A DNA stretch of 64,000 nt from an uncultured Dehalococcoidales bacterium (GCA_964547375.1 CAZJMW010000001.1:2319-66318); one strand, 5' to 3'; numbered from the stretch's first letter, positions 3,938-38,890 are shown. Notes: a model not told the origin generated them from the sequence alone. Numbers and translations: made by a program.

Positions 3938-4576
3938 ATGGATTATCAGGCAGCGAGAATTGCGCTGGTAAATAATTTTAAAGCAGACATCGATGATGAG
4001 CGGGTTCTGAAAGCCATATTGCGCGTACCACGGGAGTTATTTGTTCCCCCGGAAGAGAAGCACCTGGCTTATGAAGACAGGCCTTTGCCCATCGGTATGG
4101 GGCAGACTATTTCACAGCCGTATATAGTGGCTCTAATGACGCAGGCACTGGAGCTTGCAGTTGAGGAGAAAGTCCTCGAAATAGGTACGGGAAGCGGTTA
4201 TCAAACAGCTGTTTTAGCTGAACTGTCGAAATTGGTGGTTACCGTTGAACGTATTCCCGAATTAGCCCGGGCGGCAAATGACAGGCTAAATGTACTTGGA
4301 TATAAGAATATTATTGTTCAGATAGCTGAACCAGATATTGGCTGGCAGGCCGGAGCGCCGTATGACGCAATCATTGTTACGGCTGCAGCCCCGTTTATTC
4401 CGGAAAAACTTCTGGCACAACTGGCGGTTGGAGGAAGGATGGTAATACCGGTGGGTTCTCGTTATGAACAGGACTTATATAAAGTCATAAAACACGAACA
4501 TAAAAGCGAAATCCACAATTTGGGTGGATGCCGCTTTGTGTCTCTAATTGGGGAAGACGCCTGGGATGAAGAGTAA
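3938..4576 (+). CDS. pcm: Protein-L-isoaspartate O-methyltransferase
   Basis: Motifs GQTISQPY and VLEIGTGSGYQ. I prefer ATG 3938 (MDYQAARI) over the track's TTG 3929. Confidence 0.9.
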   Translation: MDYQAARIALVNNFKADIDDERVLKAILRVPRELFVPPEEKHLAYEDRPLPIGMGQTISQPYIVALMTQALELAVEEKVLEIGTGSGYQTAVLAELSKLVVTVERIPELARAANDRLNVLGYKNIIVQIAEPDIGWQAGAPYDAIIVTAAAPFIPEKLLAQLAVGGRMVIPVGSRYEQDLYKVIKHEHKSEIHNLGGCRFVSLIGEDAWDEE

Positions 4577-13768: not shown

Positions 13769-14821
13769 ATGGCAAAATCAGGTGTACTATTTAGATATAA
13801 GGATTATTTACCGATAACTTCGAAAACACCGATGTTTTCGATCGGAGAAGGCGATACTCCTTTAGTACGTTCGAAGAATCTGTATAATGAAATCGGCTGT
13901 GCCGAGTTGTATTTCAAGCTGGAAGGCTGCAATCCTACCGGTTCTTTTAAGGACAGGGGTATGGTAATGGCGATGGCGAAGGCAATAGAAGATGGCAGCA
14001 AGGCTGTTATCTGTGCATCCACCGGCAACACCAGTGCCTCGGCGGCAGCTTATGCGGCAGCCATGGGCTTGAAGTGCGTTATCATTATCCCGGAAGGGAA
14101 AATTGCCAAGGGCAAACTGGCTCAGGCGATAATTCACGGGGCAAAAATCGTTGCTATCGACGGCAATTTCGACCAGGCGCTTAAAATTGTGCGTACCATT
14201 ACCGAAAAACATCCCATAGCCCTGGTAAACTCTTTGAATCCCAACCGTATCGAAGGGCAGAAGACCGCTGCTTTCGAAATAATCGATGAACTGGGCGATG
14301 CCCCCGACTATCTTTTTATCCCTGTCGGCAACGCCGGAAACATTACCGCTTACTGGAAGGGCTTTGTCGAATATTACGATATGAAAAAGTCCACCAGGAA
14401 GCCGCAGATGATGGGCTTTCAAGCTGAGGGCGCGGCTCCTATAGTTCATGGCTATCCCATCGAAAAGCCGGAAACCGTAGCAACAGCTATCCGCATCGGA
14501 AATCCGGCCAGCTGGGAGAAAGCAACTCGTGCGCGCGATGAGTCGGGCGGCCTCATCGATATGGTCAGCGATGATGAAATACTGACGGCACAGAAGATTA
14601 TGGCAGCCAGGGAAGGCATCTTCGGTGAGCCGGCTTCGGCAGCGCCCTATGCCGGGCTTTTGAAGATGGTTAAGAAAGGTATGGATTTCTCGGGAAAGAA
14701 AATCGTATGTATCGTTACCGGAAACGGCATCAAGGATGCCGATACCGCTATCAAGAACGCCGAGCCGTTCCTGCAGCTTCCGGCAGACCTGCCTGCTATT
14801 GAAAAAGCCCTTGGGTTTTAA
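13769..14821 (+). CDS. thrC: Threonine synthase
   Basis: PLP lysine motif [11 protein letters not shown] prefer ATG 13769 (MAKSGVLF), preceded by GAGGAA. The track start at 13727 lies inside hom. Confidence 0.9.
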
Positions 14822-14832
14822 GAAAAATGGCT

Positions 14833-14867
14833 GTCGTTGCGAATCCCGAGTATCGGGATGAAGCATC
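14833..14867 (+). repeat. R1 hairpin element, copy 1 (GTCGTTGCGA-ATCCCGA-gta-TCGGGAT-GAAGCA)
   Basis: Starts 11 nt after the thrC stop. Matches copies at 15690, 16762 (rc) and 18151 (rc). Confidence 0.85.
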
Positions 14868-14875
14868 GGAAAAAC

Positions 14876-15036
14876 GGCTTCCCTTGGGGGAAGCTGTTGA
14901 ACGAAGTGAAACTGATGAGGGATAATACAAATCGACCCTCATCCGTCATTTAGATATGCCTGTCCGCCATCCCGATATAATCGGGACGTCTTTCAGGCTT
15001 CCCTTGGGGGAAGTCCCGACCCGTCGGGAATGAAGG
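14876..15036. repeat. Composite of truncated MITE-like units and hairpin modules
   Basis: Contains GGCTTCCCTTGGGGGAAG twice (14876, 14996), the inverted pair ACTGATGAGGG (14911) / CCCTCATCCGT (14936), and hairpins CCCGATATAATCGGG and TCCCGACCCGTCGGGA. It is the reverse complement of the units at 16513 and 17967. Confidence 0.85.
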
Positions 15037-15094
15037 ATATTGAACAGTCATATATTACTATTAAATCCAAAATAGAAAATATTCGGGGGTCAAA

Positions 15095-15682
15095 ATGGCA
15101 AAGAAAGTAGTAGATAACGTCGGTACCTTTTATCAGCATTATCCGCGCATTGCGCTGGTGGTCACCGCAGCATCGGGCGGCAAGGAAAACGCCATGACGA
15201 TTGCCTGGCATATGCCGATGTCAAAGGACCCGCCGTTAATCGCTTTTGTTACCGGAACATCCCATTTTACCTATAAACTAATCAAGGAAAGCGGTGAATT
15301 TGCCATTAACCTGATGCCGGAAACACATTCCGAAATCGTTGCTGCTATCGGCGGCAGCAAGGGTGAGGAATGCGATAAGTTTGCAACCTACGGCATTGCA
15401 AAGGATAAATCCGTAAAAACCTCAGCGCCCATACTGGCGGATGCCTATACCGCTTTCGAATGCAAGGTGGTGGATGAAAAGGTTTACGACGGGCACAGCA
15501 TGATTATCGGCGAAGTAGTGGCTACCCATGTTCAGGAAGGATGTTTGTGGGATGACGGGACTGTAAATCTGGAAAAAGTCTTTCCGGTATTATATATGGG
15601 AAGCGAGCAGTATATCAGTGTCGAGAAGGCCAATGTGCACACCCTGAGAAGGGATGTTTACGCCAAAGAATTGAAGTTGTAA
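15095..15682 (+). CDS. Flavin reductase-like FMN-binding protein
   Basis: 195 aa. Flavin reductase domain signature around MTIAWHMPMSKDPPLIAFV. Confidence 0.75.
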   Translation: MAKKVVDNVGTFYQHYPRIALVVTAASGGKENAMTIAWHMPMSKDPPLIAFVTGTSHFTYKLIKESGEFAINLMPETHSEIVAAIGGSKGEECDKFATYGIAKDKSVKTSAPILADAYTAFECKVVDEKVYDGHSMIIGEVVATHVQEGCLWDDGTVNLEKVFPVLYMGSEQYISVEKANVHTLRRDVYAKELKL

Positions 15683-15689
15683 GCCGATT

Positions 15690-15733
15690 CGTCGTTGCGA
15701 GTCCCGCTTTATCGGGACGAAGCAATCTCTACC
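15690..15733 (+). repeat. R1 hairpin element, copy 2
   Basis: CGTCGTTGCGAGTCCCGCTTTATCGGGACGAAGCAATCTCTACC. Starts 7 nt after the flavin reductase stop. Confidence 0.85.
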
Positions 15734-15942
15734 TGTGGGTATCGTCTAGTCTATGCTTTTTTATTGATTATCGGTAATGGATTTCATGTCTGGTGTGGAG
15801 CGAGGTAATCAAGAGGCTTTGTAGTGATTGCTTTGCCTTCCTTTCAGGTATGGACTCGCAAAGACAGTATTAAAAGGCTTGCCGAATCACTGCTGCGGTG
15901 TTAATCTAATAGCATCAAAATAATAACAAAGAGGATAGTGAA

Positions 15943-16509
15943 TTGTTCGACCAGGATAAAATAAAAAGAGCTGTTGAAGAAATTATCGTTGCCATTGGAG
16001 AAGACCCGAACCGAGAGGGTTTGCTTGAAACGCCGCGGCGTTTTGCCGAGATGTATACCGAGCTTTTCATGGGTATGGATATGGACCCTGTCGAGGAGCT
16101 GAAGGTCGGCTACGAACTGGGGCACCGCGAAATGGTCATACTCAAGGACATTCCCTTTTATTCGATGTGCGAACATCATCTTTTGCCGTTTTACGGCATA
16201 GTCCACATCGGCTACATTCCCAATAAAGAGGGCAGGGTGGTAGGTATCAGCAAGCTGGCGAGGGTAGTGGAAATCATCGCCAAGCGTCCGCAAATACAGG
16301 AGCGCATGGCAACAGATATCGCCGATTCCATTGTCAAGGGATTAGCTCCGGATGGTGTCGGTGTCGTCATTCAGGCCGAGCACATGTGCATGACTATGCG
16401 CGGCATCAAGAAGCCGGGTGCCAGCGTCATTACCTCTGCATTGCGTGGAACTTTTAGAAGCCGCGCCGACAGCCGCGCCGAGTTCTTCTCGCTGATTCAC
16501 GTGAAGTAG
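15943..16509 (+). CDS. folE: GTP cyclohydrolase I
   Basis: SMCEHHLLPF motif and QERMT region. TTG start with AGAGGA upstream. Confidence 0.9.
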   Translation: MFDQDKIKRAVEEIIVAIGEDPNREGLLETPRRFAEMYTELFMGMDMDPVEELKVGYELGHREMVILKDIPFYSMCEHHLLPFYGIVHIGYIPNKEGRVVGISKLARVVEIIAKRPQIQERMATDIADSIVKGLAPDGVGVVIQAEHMCMTMRGIKKPGASVITSALRGTFRSRADSRAEFFSLIHVK

Positions 16510-16512
16510 ACG

Positions 16513-16620
16513 CCCTCATCAGTCTAGCATTAATGCTCGACAGCTTCCCCCAAGGGAAGCCTGAAAAACGTCTCGATTATATCGGGGTGGCAGACAGATA
16601 TATCTGGATGACGGATGAGG
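16513..16620. repeat. MITE-like unit (~108 bp) with terminal inverted repeats, complete copy
   Basis: Starts with CCCTCATCAGT and ends with ACGGATGAGG. Internal hairpins are GCTTCCCCCAAGGGAAGC and a CGATTATATCG-centred hairpin. Begins 3 nt after the folE stop (16510-16512). Confidence 0.85.
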
Positions 16621-16761
16621 AAAACCAACCGTCTTTGCGAAATTTTCCGCTACATTGTCTTTCTGAGGCAAAGACGAAGAATCTATATAAATCAGAGAAG
16701 AAAATTGAAGCAATCTCTACCGTTAATATTGTCTGGCTACCGTATTATTAATTAGTATCAA

Positions 16762-16810
16762 AGAGATTGCCGCGTCGTCCCGCCGATACGGGACTTCTCG
16801 CAACGACGAC
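16762..16810 (-). repeat. R1 hairpin element, copy 3 (reverse orientation)
   Basis: The reverse complement reads CGTCGTTGCGAGAAGTCCCGTATCGGCGGGACGACGCGGCAATCTCT. Lies 3 nt beyond the yjbQ stop on the minus strand. Confidence 0.8.
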
Positions 16811-16813
16811 TTA

Positions 16814-17230
16814 TTACTCCCCCATCACCTGCACCACCACATCCCTCTTGCGCGGGCGGTTATCGAAGTCTATAAGCACGATTTGCTGCCACGTGCCGAG
16901 TACCATTTTGAAGTTTTCGAATGGGATGACCAATGATGCACCCAGCAGTGACGCCCTGATATGTGAATAGCCGTTGCCGTCTCCCCATGTTTCGTTGTGG
17001 GCATAGGGGATGCCCTTGGGAGCAATCCTCTAGAACGCCTCTTTGATATCTGCCACCAGCCCCGGTTCGTACTCGATGGTAGTTATCCCGGCGGTGGAGC
17101 CGGTAACGAAGACGGTCACGATGCCGCTTTTGAGGTTGGATTTAGACAATATCGCTTCCACATGGTGCGTGATGTTTACGACATCGCACTCGCCGTTGGT
17201 TTTAAGACTGATGGTTTCGGTTATTAGCAT
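16814..17230 (-). pseudogene. yjbQ: YjbQ/UPF0047 family gene (secondary thiamine-phosphate synthase family) with one in-frame TAG at 17030-17032
   Basis: The track stops at 66 aa (...DIKEAF*). Reading through the TAG in the same frame gives RIAPKGIPYAHNETWGDGNGYSHIRASLLGASLVIPFENFKMVLGTWQQIVLIDFDNRPRKRDVVVQVMGE then TAA TAA. That is the conserved C-terminal half of the family. Total length is 139 codons, normal for the family. Confidence 0.85.
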
Positions 17231-17399
17231 AGAGAGCCTCCTTGATAGTGATATAGATATTATAGGCTATTTAGAATTCAGAATCATGAAATAAATATTC
17301 TCTGCTATAACGTCTCAGGATTGAAAAATAATTTACATAAATATAATAAAGTTCAAATAGGAGTATACTGGTATGTATATAGGAGAATGTAAAAAATAA

Positions 17400-17552
17400 A
17401 TGATAAATAAAAACTTTTCCAAATCGACACGAATACACATCCGCAATGAAAAGGCGCGCATTCGCAGGACTGTCGGCGACCCGAAAGAACAGGAAAAATT
17501 AATCAACGACCTGTATCTACAATCCCGGATGAACTCCGGCAATGCCTTATAG
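17400..17552 (+). CDS. Possible small basic protein (50 aa), hypothetical
   Basis: Below the track threshold. Reads MINKNFSKSTRIHIRNEKARIRRTVGDPKEQEKLINDLYLQSRMNSGNAL. GGAG lies 14 nt upstream, which is rather far. The 128-aa minus ORF covering it is not protein-like. Confidence 0.3.
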   Translation: MINKNFSKSTRIHIRNEKARIRRTVGDPKEQEKLINDLYLQSRMNSGNAL

Positions 17553-17603
17553 GAACACTTTTTGTAGCGGCAATATCCGGTAAATATTAAAGAGCGGTGA
17601 ATT

Positions 17604-17780
17604 ATGAAATTGTGTGTAAAGAAAACATGGTGCGGAAACTGCAAGATGCTGGTCGGCGGCGAAGAAAAGAAAGTTGACAACACGACCCAAATCTTCTGTT
17701 TAAAATGCAAACAACCCATTTGGCAGCATGAAAGCGCAAGCTGGAAAAGTATGCGCCAGAACGTCTTGAAAAAAGATTAG
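17604..17780 (+). CDS. Small zinc-ribbon protein (58 aa), hypothetical
   Basis: Below the track threshold. Reads MKLCVKKTWCGNCKMLVGGEEKKVDNTTQIFCLKCKQPIWQHESASWKSMRQNVLKKD, with two CxxC pairs. Confidence 0.4.
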   Translation: MKLCVKKTWCGNCKMLVGGEEKKVDNTTQIFCLKCKQPIWQHESASWKSMRQNVLKKD

Positions 17781-17966
17781 GGATAAAACCCTATTGCCTT
17801 TGCAAAATTAAAGACGACAGATAAAAGAATATTCTGACAGGTTTAGCGATGACCCGGTTTATCTTCCGATAATTTAAGATAGGCAGGGTCTTCGTAGTTT
17901 AGGCTGTTCTTTTTAATCCGAAGTCCCGATTTACCGGGACTGACGGAAGAGGGTGACTTGTATTAT

Positions 17967-18073
17967 CCCTCATCAGTCTCGCCTTTTTGCTCGACAGCTT
18001 CCCCCAAGGGAAGCCGTTTTAAGTCCCGACCTGTCGGGATGGCAGACAGATATATTTGGATGACTGATGAGGG
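17967..18073. repeat. MITE-like unit (107 bp) with perfect 11-bp terminal inverted repeats, complete copy
   Basis: CCCTCATCAGT (17967-17977) ... ACTGATGAGGG (18063-18073). Internal hairpins are GCTTCCCCCAAGGGAAGC and GTCCCGACCTGTCGGGA. Confidence 0.9.
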
Positions 18074-18150
18074 AGGTGTCTATCACTGTCCTGCCTTAAT
18101 AAATCCTTTTTGCAGCTAATTAATAAAACATAACCGTGTTTTAATTCATC

Positions 18151-18194
18151 GGTAGAGATTGCTTCATCCCGATACATCGGGATTCGCAACGACA
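18151..18194 (-). repeat. R1 hairpin element, copy 4 (reverse orientation)
   Basis: The reverse complement reads TGTCGTTGCGAATCCCGATGTATCGGGATGAAGCAATCTCTACC. Lies 19 nt beyond the GIY-YIG gene stop. Confidence 0.85.
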
Positions 18195-18213
18195 ATAGGA
18201 CTCAGGCATAACA

Positions 18214-18507
18214 TTACCCGTCTTTATCCAGATATGAAGAAATTATCTTATCGATGCGGCTGTCGTCACGTATCAAACACTCTTTTTGTGCTTTCGTTAA
18301 CTGCTTGATTCTGTGTTCTACCACAAGCGCCAGGTTCCTGCTGCCTACTTTCTTTTGCAATTCCAGGGTAACCGGTCTTCTGCAACGGACATATTTTGAC
18401 CCGTTGCCGCTTTGATGTTCCGCAAAGCGGCGTGCAACATCGGTAGTGATGCCTGTGTACAGGCTTTCGTCTTTGCACCTGATAAGGTATATATACCAAT
18501 CCGGCAT
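18214..18507 (-). CDS. GIY-YIG nuclease superfamily protein (UPF0213/YhbQ-like)
   Basis: 97 aa with WYIYLIRCKDESLYTGITTDVARRFAEH. The start ATG overlaps the tex stop as TAATG. Confidence 0.8.
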   Translation of the reverse strand: MPDWYIYLIRCKDESLYTGITTDVARRFAEHQSGNGSKYVRCRRPVTLELQKKVGSRNLALVVEHRIKQLTKAQKECLIRDDSRIDKIISSYLDKDG

Positions 18508-31546: not shown

Positions 31547-31650
31547 TGTCTTGCTGGAGTCCCGACTTGTCGGGACGAAGTATCTGGGGTTGGTGAGGAT
31601 TACTCCTCCCCCAGGATTCTTCAGTCGTTTCACTCCTTCCAGAATGACAG
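31547..31650. repeat. Family-3 inverted-repeat element (104 bp) in the carA-carB spacer
   Basis: TGTCTTGCTGGAG-TCCCGACTTGTCGGGA-CGAAG...CTGGGG..CCCCAG...CCAGAATGACAG. Related to the copy at 38728-38837. Confidence 0.8.
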
Positions 31651-31658
31651 TTCCCTTC

Positions 31659-32750
31659 TTATCTGCTCTTATCAATCATTCCTAAAAACTGTTTAAAGAG
31701 ATAAGTCGTATCCAGCGGGCCGGGAGATGCTTCCGAGTGATACTGGATACCGAAAATCGGCAGTTCCTTGTGTCTGACACCCTCTACCGTGCCGTCATTA
31801 AGGTTGATAAAACTGACTTCAAGCCCGTTTGACACCGTATCCGGGTCTAAGGCAAAGCCATGATTCTGGGCGGTAATGTGAATTCTGCCGTTAGAAAGTT
31901 CCTTAACCGGGTGATTGCCGCCGCGGTGACCGAACTTCAGTTTAAAAGTTTTAGCCCCGAAAGCGCGTCCTATCAACTGGTTGCCGAGGCAGATGCCCAT
32001 AATCGGCTTTCTTTCAATAAGCATTTTTACGTTATCGACAATATAATCTAAAAGTTCGGGATTTCCCGGTCCGGGTGACAGCAATATACCATCCGGATTA
32101 ATTTTCAGTATTTCACTTGCCGGTGTATCACATGGAAATACCTTTAAGCTGCAATTGAGTGCGCTTAACTTTCTAAGTATGCTGAATTTTAAACCGCAAT
32201 CCAGAACGGCAATTGTATAGGCGCTTTCAGTACACTTTTCAGCTTGCCAGTCATAAATTTCGGGTGATGAAACCTTGTGTACAAAATCGGTGTTGCTGTA
32301 ATCCGGCTTCAACTTTATTTCGGCTAAAGCCTGCTGCGGTGTCTTTTCACAGGTTATAATGCCTCGCATAACGCCGCATGAACGTAAAAGTCTTGTAATT
32401 GCACGCGTATCTATTCCGTGTATTCCGGAAATACCGTTATCAGCCAGGTAATCATGAATATTATTTCTACTCTGATAGTGGCTGGGTTCCTCGCATTCTT
32501 CCCTGACAACGAATCCGCTGACCTGTATCCGTTTGGATTCAAAGTCGTTATCATTAATACCGTAATTTCCTATCATGGGATATGTCGGCACTACGATTTG
32601 CCCGGCATAGGACGGGTCGGTCAGTATTTCCTGGTAACCTGACATGCTGGTATTGAATACCACTTCCCCATAGGTTTCCGTATCAGACCCGAAAGAATAG
32701 CCCTCAAAAATCGAACCGTCTTCCAGTACCAGAATAGCTTTTTTGTTCAC
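31659..32750 (-). CDS. carA: Carbamoyl-phosphate synthase small (glutamine amidotransferase) subunit
   Basis: GATase active site GICLGNQL. 4-nt overlap with pyrC. Confidence 0.95.
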   Translation of the reverse strand: MNKKAILVLEDGSIFEGYSFGSDTETYGEVVFNTSMSGYQEILTDPSYAGQIVVPTYPMIGNYGINDNDFESKRIQVSGFVVREECEEPSHYQSRNNIHDYLADNGISGIHGIDTRAITRLLRSCGVMRGIITCEKTPQQALAEIKLKPDYSNTDFVHKVSSPEIYDWQAEKCTESAYTIAVLDCGLKFSILRKLSALNCSLKVFPCDTPASEILKINPDGILLSPGPGNPELLDYIVDNVKMLIERKPIMGICLGNQLIGRAFGAKTFKLKFGHRGGNHPVKELSNGRIHITAQNHGFALDPDTVSNGLEVSFINLNDGTVEGVRHKELPIFGIQYHSEASPGPLDTTYLFKQFLGMIDKSR

Positions 32751-38727: not shown

Positions 38728-38837
38728 CTGTCATCATGGAGTCCCGACTCGTCGGGACGATGAATCTGGGGGGTGGGGATATAATACCACCCTTCCCGGG
38801 ATACTTCGTCCGCCTGCGGCGTCCTCCAGCAAGACAG
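38728..38837. repeat. Family-3 inverted-repeat element (110 bp)
   Basis: CTGTCATCATGGAG-TCCCGACTCGTCGGGA-CGATG...CTGGGG..CCCGGG...CTCCAGCAAGACAG. The track ORF 38648..38866 is an artefact of this element. Confidence 0.8.
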
Positions 38838-38890
38838 TTTAAATGCCTATGATTTGAATCTGACAAATCGGTATTTCGCCATGACGTCCT

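Follow-up and report, generated by a model that had tools for sequence, protein, structure and literature searches.

What is a short hairpin doing directly behind the stop codons of four unrelated genes? The question is raised by a 64,000-nt stretch of DNA from an uncultured Dehalococcoidales bacterium (GCA_964547375.1 CAZJMW010000001.1:2319-66318), in which an oriented hairpin element, R1, recurs between thrC and a GIY-YIG gene. The whole 64-kb stretch is referred to as the window, and L-numbers designate other loci compared with it. A preliminary description of the window took the strict position and orientation of four R1 copies as a sign of a function in the 3′ untranslated region (3′-UTR) of the mRNA. 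R1 is very probably a local Dehalococcoidales subtype of the CGTC/TGTC-tagged repetitive extragenic palindromes (REPs) or Ssn-related motifs (SRMs), a selfish-looking DNA repeat and not a dedicated 3′-UTR signal. The observations that carry this answer are the anatomy of the element with its compensatory pairing, its breadth over phyla, phages and plasmids, its turnover at orthologous sites, the geometry of its pairs and the bracket that related units form around Ssn homologues.

The head GTCGTTGCGA has four exact matches in the window, at 14833 (+), 15691 (+), 16798-16807 (-) and 18184-18193 (-), each followed by a TCCCG-loop-CGGGA hairpin; with at most one mismatch there are 8 matches vs 2.6 expected. 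Hairpins of this type number 10 in the window vs 0.38 expected, and 8 of the 10 fall within 14.8-18.2 kb. The covariance model cited in the following list was trained on family members including the four window copies, whose matches are therefore by construction.

14833-14868, plus strand: R1 copy 1, 11 nt past the thrC stop (14819-14821); covariance model match 14831-14871, 33.4 bits
15691-15733, plus strand: R1 copy 2, 7-8 nt past the flavin reductase stop (15680-15682); covariance model match 15689-15733, 56.8 bits
15820-15867, minus strand: degenerate inverted copy, GTCTTTGCGAG...GCAAAGCAATCACTACA; covariance model match of 17.3 bits, E=0.016
16631-16721, plus strand: composite or degenerate copy made up, in this order, of a left frame GTCTTTGCGA, a degenerate right end GAAGAATCT and, at 16707-16721, a lone right end GAAGCAATCTCTACC
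16759-16809, minus strand: R1 copy 3, 2-8 nt past the double TAA of yjbQ (16813-16818); covariance model match of 37.8 bits
17921-17944, plus strand: orphan inner hairpin AAGTCCCGATTTACCGGGACTGAC
18151-18195, minus strand: R1 copy 4, full frame, 19 nt past the stop of the GIY-YIG gene (18214-18216); covariance model match of 56.9 bits

Exact matches and stop positions confirm that all four intact copies are co-oriented with the gene before them and begin 2-19 nt past its stop, and the sequence has no T-run, so the reported lack of a U-tract stands. The earlier count of four copies holds for the intact ones but overlooked two degenerate copies (15820-15867 and 16631-16721). The upstream genes belong, by Pfam, to PALP (threonine synthase), Flavin_Reduct, UPF0047 (YjbQ) and GIY-YIG. 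Copies 2 and 4 carry the full consensus; copy 2 has the full frame with a CTCTACC tail, and copy 4 is identical in the same-strain contig L124. Copy 1, which reads GTCGTTGCGA-ATCCCGA-GTA-TCGGGAT-GAAGCA, has lost the ATCTCTACC tail and continues as GAAGCA|TCGG, truncated or replaced at the point where a different repeat begins. Copy 3 diverges from the others: its inner stem is longer, and it has an extra GAAG and a GACGCG tail. The orphan hairpin at 17921-17944 is possibly a decayed partner of copy 4.

Units of the family share the frame YGTC-(A/G)TTGC-GA-(variable hairpin)-G(A/T/C)(A/G)-GCAAT-CTC. Its parts are a 5′ YGTC tag that stays unpaired, an outer stem of 5 bp, (A/G)TTGC/GCAAT, a conserved GA/G-N-R internal loop, an inner hairpin that is free in sequence provided it pairs, and a C with a short tail after the palindrome. 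The GTC triplet is invariant in the family alignment A1, and the tags of copies 1-4 are TGTC, CGTC, CGTC and TGTC. GCAAT-C is at least 90% conserved in the same alignment and is present in copies 2, 3 and 4, copy 1 being truncated there; loops of family units span 3-12 nt. The four intact R1 copies of the window each fold as outer stem, GA/GAA internal loop and inner hairpin, with RNA folding energies of -15 to -21 kcal/mol and z-scores of -2.2 to -3.8. A K-turn or loop-E reading of the GA/GAA loop was ruled out by inspection for lack of fit.

The preliminary description had asked whether the stem differences between copies are compensatory, and they are. Across 40 aligned units, every one of the six inner-helix pairs varies on both sides, with a covariation score of 0.41 vs 0.11 in shuffles (0/500 reach 0.41) and 0.04-0.09 in slid controls; these 40 units were chosen for the canonical fold, which inflates their pairing figure of 94%. 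The first inner pair was also read from 90 distinct metagenome copies in which both positions had been left free, and it is G-C in 71, A-T in 14 and something else in 5 (Fisher p=3e-13). The A...T copies of the window (1 and 4) and its G...C copies (2 and 3) thus represent two compensated subtypes.

The frame extends far beyond this genome. A scan of GTDB with one genome per species, in which only the two ends were fixed (GTCGTTGCGA, 10-40 nt, GCAATCTCT), matched at least 119 stretches, a number in the same range as the chance matches expected over the whole GTDB collection by the analysis's own arithmetic. Among the 124 matches listed, G-N-R precedes GCAAT in 105 (GAA 76, GTG 15, GCG 10), and GTC is preceded by T in 60% and by C in 27%, other flanks being unconserved. 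These matches are judged non-random because of the G-N-R loop, the T or C before GTC and the otherwise unconserved flanks. In most of those listed the fold is an outer stem and an inner hairpin separated by a 2x3 internal loop. Their hosts include isolates of Bellilinea, Pseudopedobacter, Mariniflexile and Chryseobacterium and metagenome-assembled genomes (MAGs) of Chloroflexota, Bacteroidota, Planctomycetota, Omnitrophota, Thermodesulfobacteriota, Proteobacteria, Ignavibacteria, Acidobacteriota and others. Over all searches the frame spans more than 15 phyla and also occurs on phage contigs and plasmids, the commoner head outside the window being TGTCATTGCGAG; the tag, the loop, the trailing C and the inner pairing were each left free in different scans.

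Viral contigs contribute 165 copies. The upstream 5-mer is TGTCA in 110 of them and YGTC occurs in about 93%, at a position left unconstrained in the search. Genes for a major capsid protein and an SPP1-type portal are present on some of these contigs. A clade of phage contigs with this capsid and portal in common (L230-L349, from IMG/VR; for example L347 1956-4712) carries one to several TTGCGAG-frame units per contig and is a possible vehicle for spread between phyla. Unannotated copies are present on plasmids of cultured cyanobacteria and proteobacteria. An identical master unit, GTCGTTGCGAGTCCCGATTTATCGGGACGAAGCAATC, recurs in 35 different metagenome contexts, and arrays of as many as 27 units, differing in their inner hairpins, occur in some genomes. 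No target-site motif or duplication is visible at the R1 flanks. An Rfam scan at the gathering threshold returned only a tRNA, and nothing relevant at E up to 5; weak Pedo-repair matches on an array have E values of 0.1-0.5. A literature search with the raw sequence and with translated-repeat peptides gave nothing relevant. A CRISPR reading of R1 was ruled out by sequence and spacing, and a transposon-like structure with R1 in long inverted repeats on a proteobacterial MAG contig (L102 2500-7320) is a 4.8-kb near-perfect palindrome with arms 94-100% complementary, probably an assembly artefact.

R1 is not kept in place at the ends of these genes in close relatives. The gene order hom-thrC-flavin reductase-folE(-yjbQ) is kept in L223/L224, L226 and L227-L229, whose ThrC proteins are 95%, 91% and 88% identical, respectively, to that of the window. 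L227 has minimal spacers, with 140 nt between thrC and the reductase gene and 72 nt between the latter and folE, and contains no R1, R2 or R3-type repeat; its reductase-folE spacer is essentially a promoter-like block common to all four relatives compared. L223, at 95%, lacks copy 1, copy 3 after yjbQ and the R2 repeat (described below) after folE. Its copy-2 site holds only a remnant, TCATTGCGAG..CTCTAC, and its orthologue of the 16631 element begins 8 nt past the folE stop. In L226 other repeat families occupy the corresponding sites and R1 is absent after yjbQ. The covariance model, run over 50 kb of the relatives' loci, found no R1 except in the same-strain contig L124. Aligned with the relatives, the window is about 190 nt longer from the reductase stop to the folE promoter block, and after yjbQ it has sequence inserted or replaced. 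The identical unit in 35 contexts, the arrays of mixed hairpins and the lack of R1 at the relatives' syntenic loci mark R1 as a proliferating repeat.

These data bear most directly on the reading put forward in the preliminary description, that R1 is a cis-acting RNA element selected at the four genes as a factor-dependent terminator, a block to 3′ exonucleases or a translation-termination hairpin. Several features speak for it. All four intact copies are co-oriented and stop-proximal, and the sense-strand RNA folds 2-6 kcal/mol better than the antisense strand, the outermost pair being G-U in 34 of 39 family members. Terminator prediction in the window made no call on any R1 copy, leaving these gene ends with no intrinsic terminator, and E. 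coli REPs within 15 nt of a stop have been discussed as translational modulators (PMC12306157). Set against this are the failure of R1 to persist at the gene ends of relatives with 88-95% identical ThrC, one of which manages with spacers of 140 and 72 nt, and the presence of the same frame in arrays, divergent regions and phages. A 20-nt frame common to many phyla is unexpected for terminators, and the nuclease SsnA, introduced below, does not bind RNA (PMC11893778). With R1 absent, decayed or replaced in these relatives, a dedicated 3′-UTR RNA function is not supported; it is an unlikely explanation, and any effect of R1 on mRNA 3′ ends would be secondary.

Metagenome copies of the R1 subtype show no overall co-orientation. 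The genes on either side of them (naive open reading frames, ORFs) are tandem and co-oriented with the element in 17 cases, tandem and opposite to it in 15, divergent in 10 and convergent in 8. Distances to stop codons were taken from complete ORFs of at least 150 aa for 377 distinct units. Within 20 nt of a stop, 22 units have their 5′ tag after a same-strand stop vs 5 whose 3′ end abuts a stop on the opposite strand; the two orientation classes become equal beyond 80 nt. The excess comes from clustered units, those with another family fragment within 150 nt, which within 20 nt of a stop are co-oriented in 20 cases vs none opposite, as against 2 vs 5 for isolated units. Family-wide, singletons therefore show no orientation preference, a further point against the RNA reading.

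Pair geometry accounts for this pattern. Adjacent units have their tags outward in 76 cases, in tandem in 59 and inward in 34, and a tags-outward pair inserted after any gene makes that gene face a co-oriented unit, which explains the co-orientation rule. Two such pairs in the window include intact R1 copies. Copy 2 (+) is paired with the inverted copy at 15820-15867 (-), GTC tags outward, and the 16631 element (+) is paired with copy 3 (-), again tags outward, between the convergent genes folE and yjbQ. Most CGTC-tagged repeats described previously also lie less than 20 bp from ORF 3′ ends, and dimers with tags outside (termed HH) predominate among them (Di Nocera 2013, PMC3733652). The proximity to stops seen earlier in the window is thus real, but the orientation is not the element's own.

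Elsewhere in the window, tags-outward TGTC doublets of about 105 nt occur at 31547-31650 and 38729-38840 and fold as DNA end to end (-22 and -23.5 kcal/mol). The left unit reads GTCTTGCTGGA-GTCCCG..CGGGAC-GAAGTATC and the right unit GTCATTCTGGAAGG...GAAGAATCC. The gene at 31659-32750 (-) has its stop 8 nt from the tag of the doublet at 31547-31650, and an element like these doublets follows thrC in L226.

What protein might such a repeat serve? A search for ORFs enclosed by inverted family units 300-2500 nt apart yielded one recurrent family, a GIY-YIG protein of roughly 95 aa. Genes of this subfamily are bracketed by family elements in 7 of 7 independent cases in 2.65 Mb of loci. The tail of the upstream unit ends 14-25 nt before the start codon, the gene follows, and an inverted unit comes next, its tail in most loci overlapping the stop codon (TGAGATTGC...CTCGCAATGAC). 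As exceptions, the inverted unit lies about 100 nt downstream in L180, the downstream unit has the same orientation and no tag in L094, and in L120 the stop codon is mutated and the unit degenerate. A protein-only search, made to remove ascertainment bias, found at least 7993 homologues at E up to 1e-10; in loci chosen by protein the bracket is present in 4 of 4 independent contexts, with unrelated neighbouring genes. The comparison of recurrent neighbours by all-against-all BLAST gave only generic families in genome loci and one phage clade in viral contigs.

The Ssn family (GIY-YIG, cd10448) comprises site-specific single-stranded DNA (ssDNA) nucleases associated with SRMs (Chenal et al. 2025, Nat Commun 16:2388, PMC11893778). 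According to the same study, the Neisseria motif (NTS) is CGTCATTCCCGCGMAVGCGGGAATCYRG and the architecture is SRM-ssnA-SRM. SsnA binds and cuts ssDNA only, on one strand, a few nt upstream of the motif, and acts on neither double-stranded DNA nor RNA. Cleavage is governed by the three bases upstream of the palindrome, a triplet needed for cleavage in N. meningitidis, and binding by the C after it. The system modulates natural transformation in N. meningitidis, and ssDNA binding and cleavage have been shown for the Neisseria and Wolbachia homologues only (PMC11893778).

Proteins bracketed by R1-family units share 46-51% identity with the N. gonorrhoeae SsnA orthologue, whose ORF has Y6, Y17 and E64, the residues mutated in the published work (PMC11893778). 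The R1 subtype itself brackets an Ssn homologue in L180, L363, L364 and L365, the last three being syntenic and one of these three lying on a 1.5-Mb contig, with cGTCGTTGCGAGGAAATCCCG...GACGAAGCAATCTCaagttATG upstream and GGGATTGCTTCGTCCCGAC..GTCGGGACTCGCAACGAC about 100 nt past the stop. In L363, L364 and L365 (around 4001-4345, GC about 49-50%) the bracketed ssn homologue stands between a NuoF-like fusion gene and a formate-dehydrogenase-like gene, and looks like a fixed, possibly domesticated copy. Among cultured bacteria, a tblastn search of plasmids and chromids turned up homologues in Neisseria, Sinorhizobium, Azospirillum, Novosphingobium, Sphingobium, Planktothrix, Spirosoma and others. 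Six homologue loci (Neisseria, Sinorhizobium, Azospirillum, Novosphingobium, Planktothrix and Spirosoma) are intergenic and flanked by the species' own CGTC/TGTC-tagged repeats, 6 of 6. On plasmid AZO_p3 of Azospirillum lipoferum 4B (255506-255799, L359) the ssn homologue and its CGTC repeat pairs sit between sufB and sufC, inside a housekeeping operon. Gene calls for the partner protein range from 95 to 164 aa; in L350 (132 aa) the extra N-terminal residues are translated flanking repeat, and ORFs running through repeat arrays are also seen.

The GIY-YIG gene next to copy 4 is of a different kind.

18214-18507, minus strand: GIY-YIG gene of the window (PF01541), YhbQ/UPF0213-like, E=2.6e-4 to an Ssn-like profile

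Its product is 50% identical to E. coli YhbQ. The gene overlaps the end of tex, without an upstream unit, and copy 4 faces it with its tag, not its tail; the adjacency of gene and repeat is treated as coincidence. Used as a phmmer query against the ORFs of 119 loci, the YhbQ-like protein found no match, being a query of the wrong subfamily.

A second rival explanation takes R1 for a classical GTAG-type REP or REPIN (paired REP) mobilised by a REP-associated tyrosine transposase (RAYT, a Y1 HUH enzyme), the reverse complement of the tail being GGTAGAG. The hairpin with an oriented unpaired end, the tags-outward pairs, the mosaic clusters like those of bacterial interspersed mosaic elements (BIMEs) and the GGTAG at the 3′ end of copies 2 and 4 would all suit this explanation. 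However, IS608 and ISDra2 queries found no RAYT or IS200-like ORF in the window or the first 119 loci. Loci totalling 1.59 Mb contain just two RAYT genes, and both have GTAG repeats of their own as flanks instead of R1-family units. The YGTC end is conserved beyond Dehalococcoidales, but the ACC from which GGTAG arises is not. A RAYT-mobilised origin is accordingly very unlikely. REPtrons at L196 375-1100 and L181 250-1500 combine RAYT-like genes with GTAG-tagged hairpins (GTAGTGCGACC..GGTCG and GTAGTGGCGGGG..CCCCGCC, respectively); they lie within a few hundred nt of TTGCGAG-frame arrays, so that both repeat systems are present in one genome.

A third explanation takes the R1 copies for recombination sites of gene cassettes, like integron attC. 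Every element does follow an unrelated gene in the same orientation, and one flank hints at recombination at R1 ends. In L223 8577-8700 the composite element's right end (AAGCAATCTCTGCC|gatgaattacaactcggttatg) is followed by sequence that matches the flank of window copy 4 (18100-18150) and does not match that of the window's own right end at 16707, which suggests a rearrangement via recombination between R1 copies. The ends of R1 are GTCGTTGC...GCAATCTC, not RYYYAAC...GTTRRRY, and its length of 35-49 nt falls below the attC range (at least about 55 nt). The genes concerned lie on both strands and include the housekeeping genes thrC and folE in conserved synteny, and no cassette-wise presence or absence of genes is seen. 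An attC-like role is exceedingly improbable.

R1 shares its neighbourhood with other repeats. R2, a family of about 108 nt that looks like a miniature inverted-repeat transposable element (MITE), is present at 16513-16620 (+) and 17967-18072 (+), with rearranged partial copies at 14876-15030. It has terminal inverted repeats CCCTCATCAGTC/GACTGATGAGGG and, inside, a GCTTCCCCCAAGGGAAGC hairpin and a TCCCG..CGGGA hairpin; the GCTTCCCCCAAGGGAAGC hairpin is terminator-like, with a T-run after it, at 17997 and 14894. R2 begins 4 nt past the folE stop and is absent from that site in L223 (95%). The sole intergenic part common to the window, L223, L226 and L227 is a conserved block upstream of folE at 15905-15942 (TTGCCGAAT..N..GTGATAATCT), probably the folE promoter. 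In yjbQ (minus strand) codon 67, at 17030-17032, is an in-frame TAG where the intact 138-aa YjbQ proteins of L223 and L226 have a conserved Glu; a pseudogene, a sequencing error or recoding would each account for it. The flavin reductase gene of L226 (2371-2958) is split into calls of 117 and 60 aa by a frameshift or stop. Repeat turnover, and probably rearrangement too, has a hotspot in the intergenic regions from thrC to the GIY-YIG gene.

The reading of R1 as a member of the CGTC/TGTC-tagged and Ssn-related repeats suggests the following course of events. A single-domain Ssn GIY-YIG nuclease of about 95 aa binds the folded motif on one ssDNA strand and nicks a few nt upstream of the tag, as in the characterised systems elsewhere; R1 as ssDNA would be bound and nicked in the same way. 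The full unit, as seen in related loci, is a repeat, an ssn gene and an inverted repeat with tags outward. Pairs without the gene, and singletons, would be derivatives of this unit that have spread and decayed. The window copies would then be lineage-specific insertions or remnants of tags-outward pairs, and the cognate Ssn is presumably encoded in this genome. Insertions would be tolerated in a compact genome just past stop codons and ahead of the next promoter. As tolerated sites lie there, every intact copy would come to stand beside a stop with its tag toward the gene.

Several points weigh against this account. The four intact copies of the window all lie within 20 nt of a stop, vs roughly 10% of units family-wide, so that local selection or function may apply. 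There is no Ssn-subfamily gene within the 64-kb window, where the only GIY-YIG gene described is YhbQ-like and of opposite geometry. The published SRM string, HGTCWYN(0-2)YYVSBRHN(0-5)WNVSBRGN(0-2)RNCYNB, matches 0 of 706 family units and none in the window, and the R1 stem is two-tier where that of the CGTC-tagged REPs is a continuous 8-9 bp, with loops that are not the 4-5 nt of those repeats. The search patterns fixed the frame, making its conservation partly a matter of construction, and gene calls in foreign loci are naive ORFs. As to the SRM string, the NTS and Azospirillum controls match it, and it also misses the ssn-flanking repeats of S. meliloti, Novosphingobium, Spirosoma and Planktothrix; it is a search tool rather than a definition.

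A bolder version, possible if doubtful, is that the TTGCGAG-frame repeats form a very large, cross-phylum and phage-borne branch of the SRMs with its own Ssn specificity class, and that stop-proximal copies have an added function. The protein of such a branch would read only the frame (tag, outer stem, GA/GNR loop and trailing C) and tolerate any inner hairpin. In a compact genome like this one, stop-proximal copies whose tags point to the gene could act on the non-template strand during transcription, or mark genes for ssDNA restriction in DNA uptake; if this were true, the stop-proximal position would be a function and not a by-product. For annotation, an apparent 3′-UTR signal becomes a recognisable class of repeat that can be masked in Dehalococcoidia and many uncultured lineages, avoiding spurious ORFs. 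For work on Ssn proteins, it matters that a frame abundant in more than 15 phyla and in phages escapes the published degenerate motif. With conserved flanks and a free inner hairpin, the TTGCGAG frame offers natural specificity experiments and new enzyme-site pairs for ssDNA tools.

Among known systems, intrinsic terminators resemble R1 as GC-rich hairpins just past a stop codon; R1 differs in having no U-tract, in a frame common across phyla and in not being kept at orthologous gene ends. GTAG-type REPs, REPINs and BIMEs with their RAYT are alike in outline, being short oriented hairpins with inverted pairs and mosaic clusters that bracket a single-copy nuclease gene and favour gene 3′ ends, but differ in the tag and in the fold of the enzyme (HUH Y1 vs GIY-YIG). 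The CGTC-tagged REPs, classed as families CGTC-1 to CGTC-4, have a tag, a tail and tags-outside dimers without a RAYT (Di Nocera, De Gregorio & Rocco 2013, PMC3733652). R1 shares with them the unpaired CGTC/TGTC tag, a stem that starts with (A/G)T and ends with AT, the short unpaired tail, the predominance of tags-outside dimers, copies no more than about 20 bp from ORF 3′ ends and the absence of an adjacent Y1 transposase. Its tail is CTC(T) vs their CCA, some genomes commonly have tandem copies and large arrays of it, and the TTGCGAG frame is absent from the text and supplements of that study, figures excepted. The SRMs, represented by NTS/dRS3 in Neisseria, resemble R1 as oriented 20-50 nt hairpin repeats with an upstream GTC, a trailing C and hundreds of mostly intergenic copies; the arrangement repeat-ssn-inverted repeat is seen for the R1 family and the R1 subtype in loci outside the window. 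R1 differs in its two-tiered stem, with the ATTGC/GCAAT frame, the GA/GNR internal loop and the free inner hairpin. The earlier statement that R1 belongs to no described family thus holds for its frame, which the published search motif does not match, but not for its kind, which is described as CGTC-tagged REPs and as SRMs. Of the roles first listed for it, that of a protein-binding site probably comes close to the truth, with the difference that SsnA, the partner characterised for such repeats, binds ssDNA and not RNA (PMC11893778).

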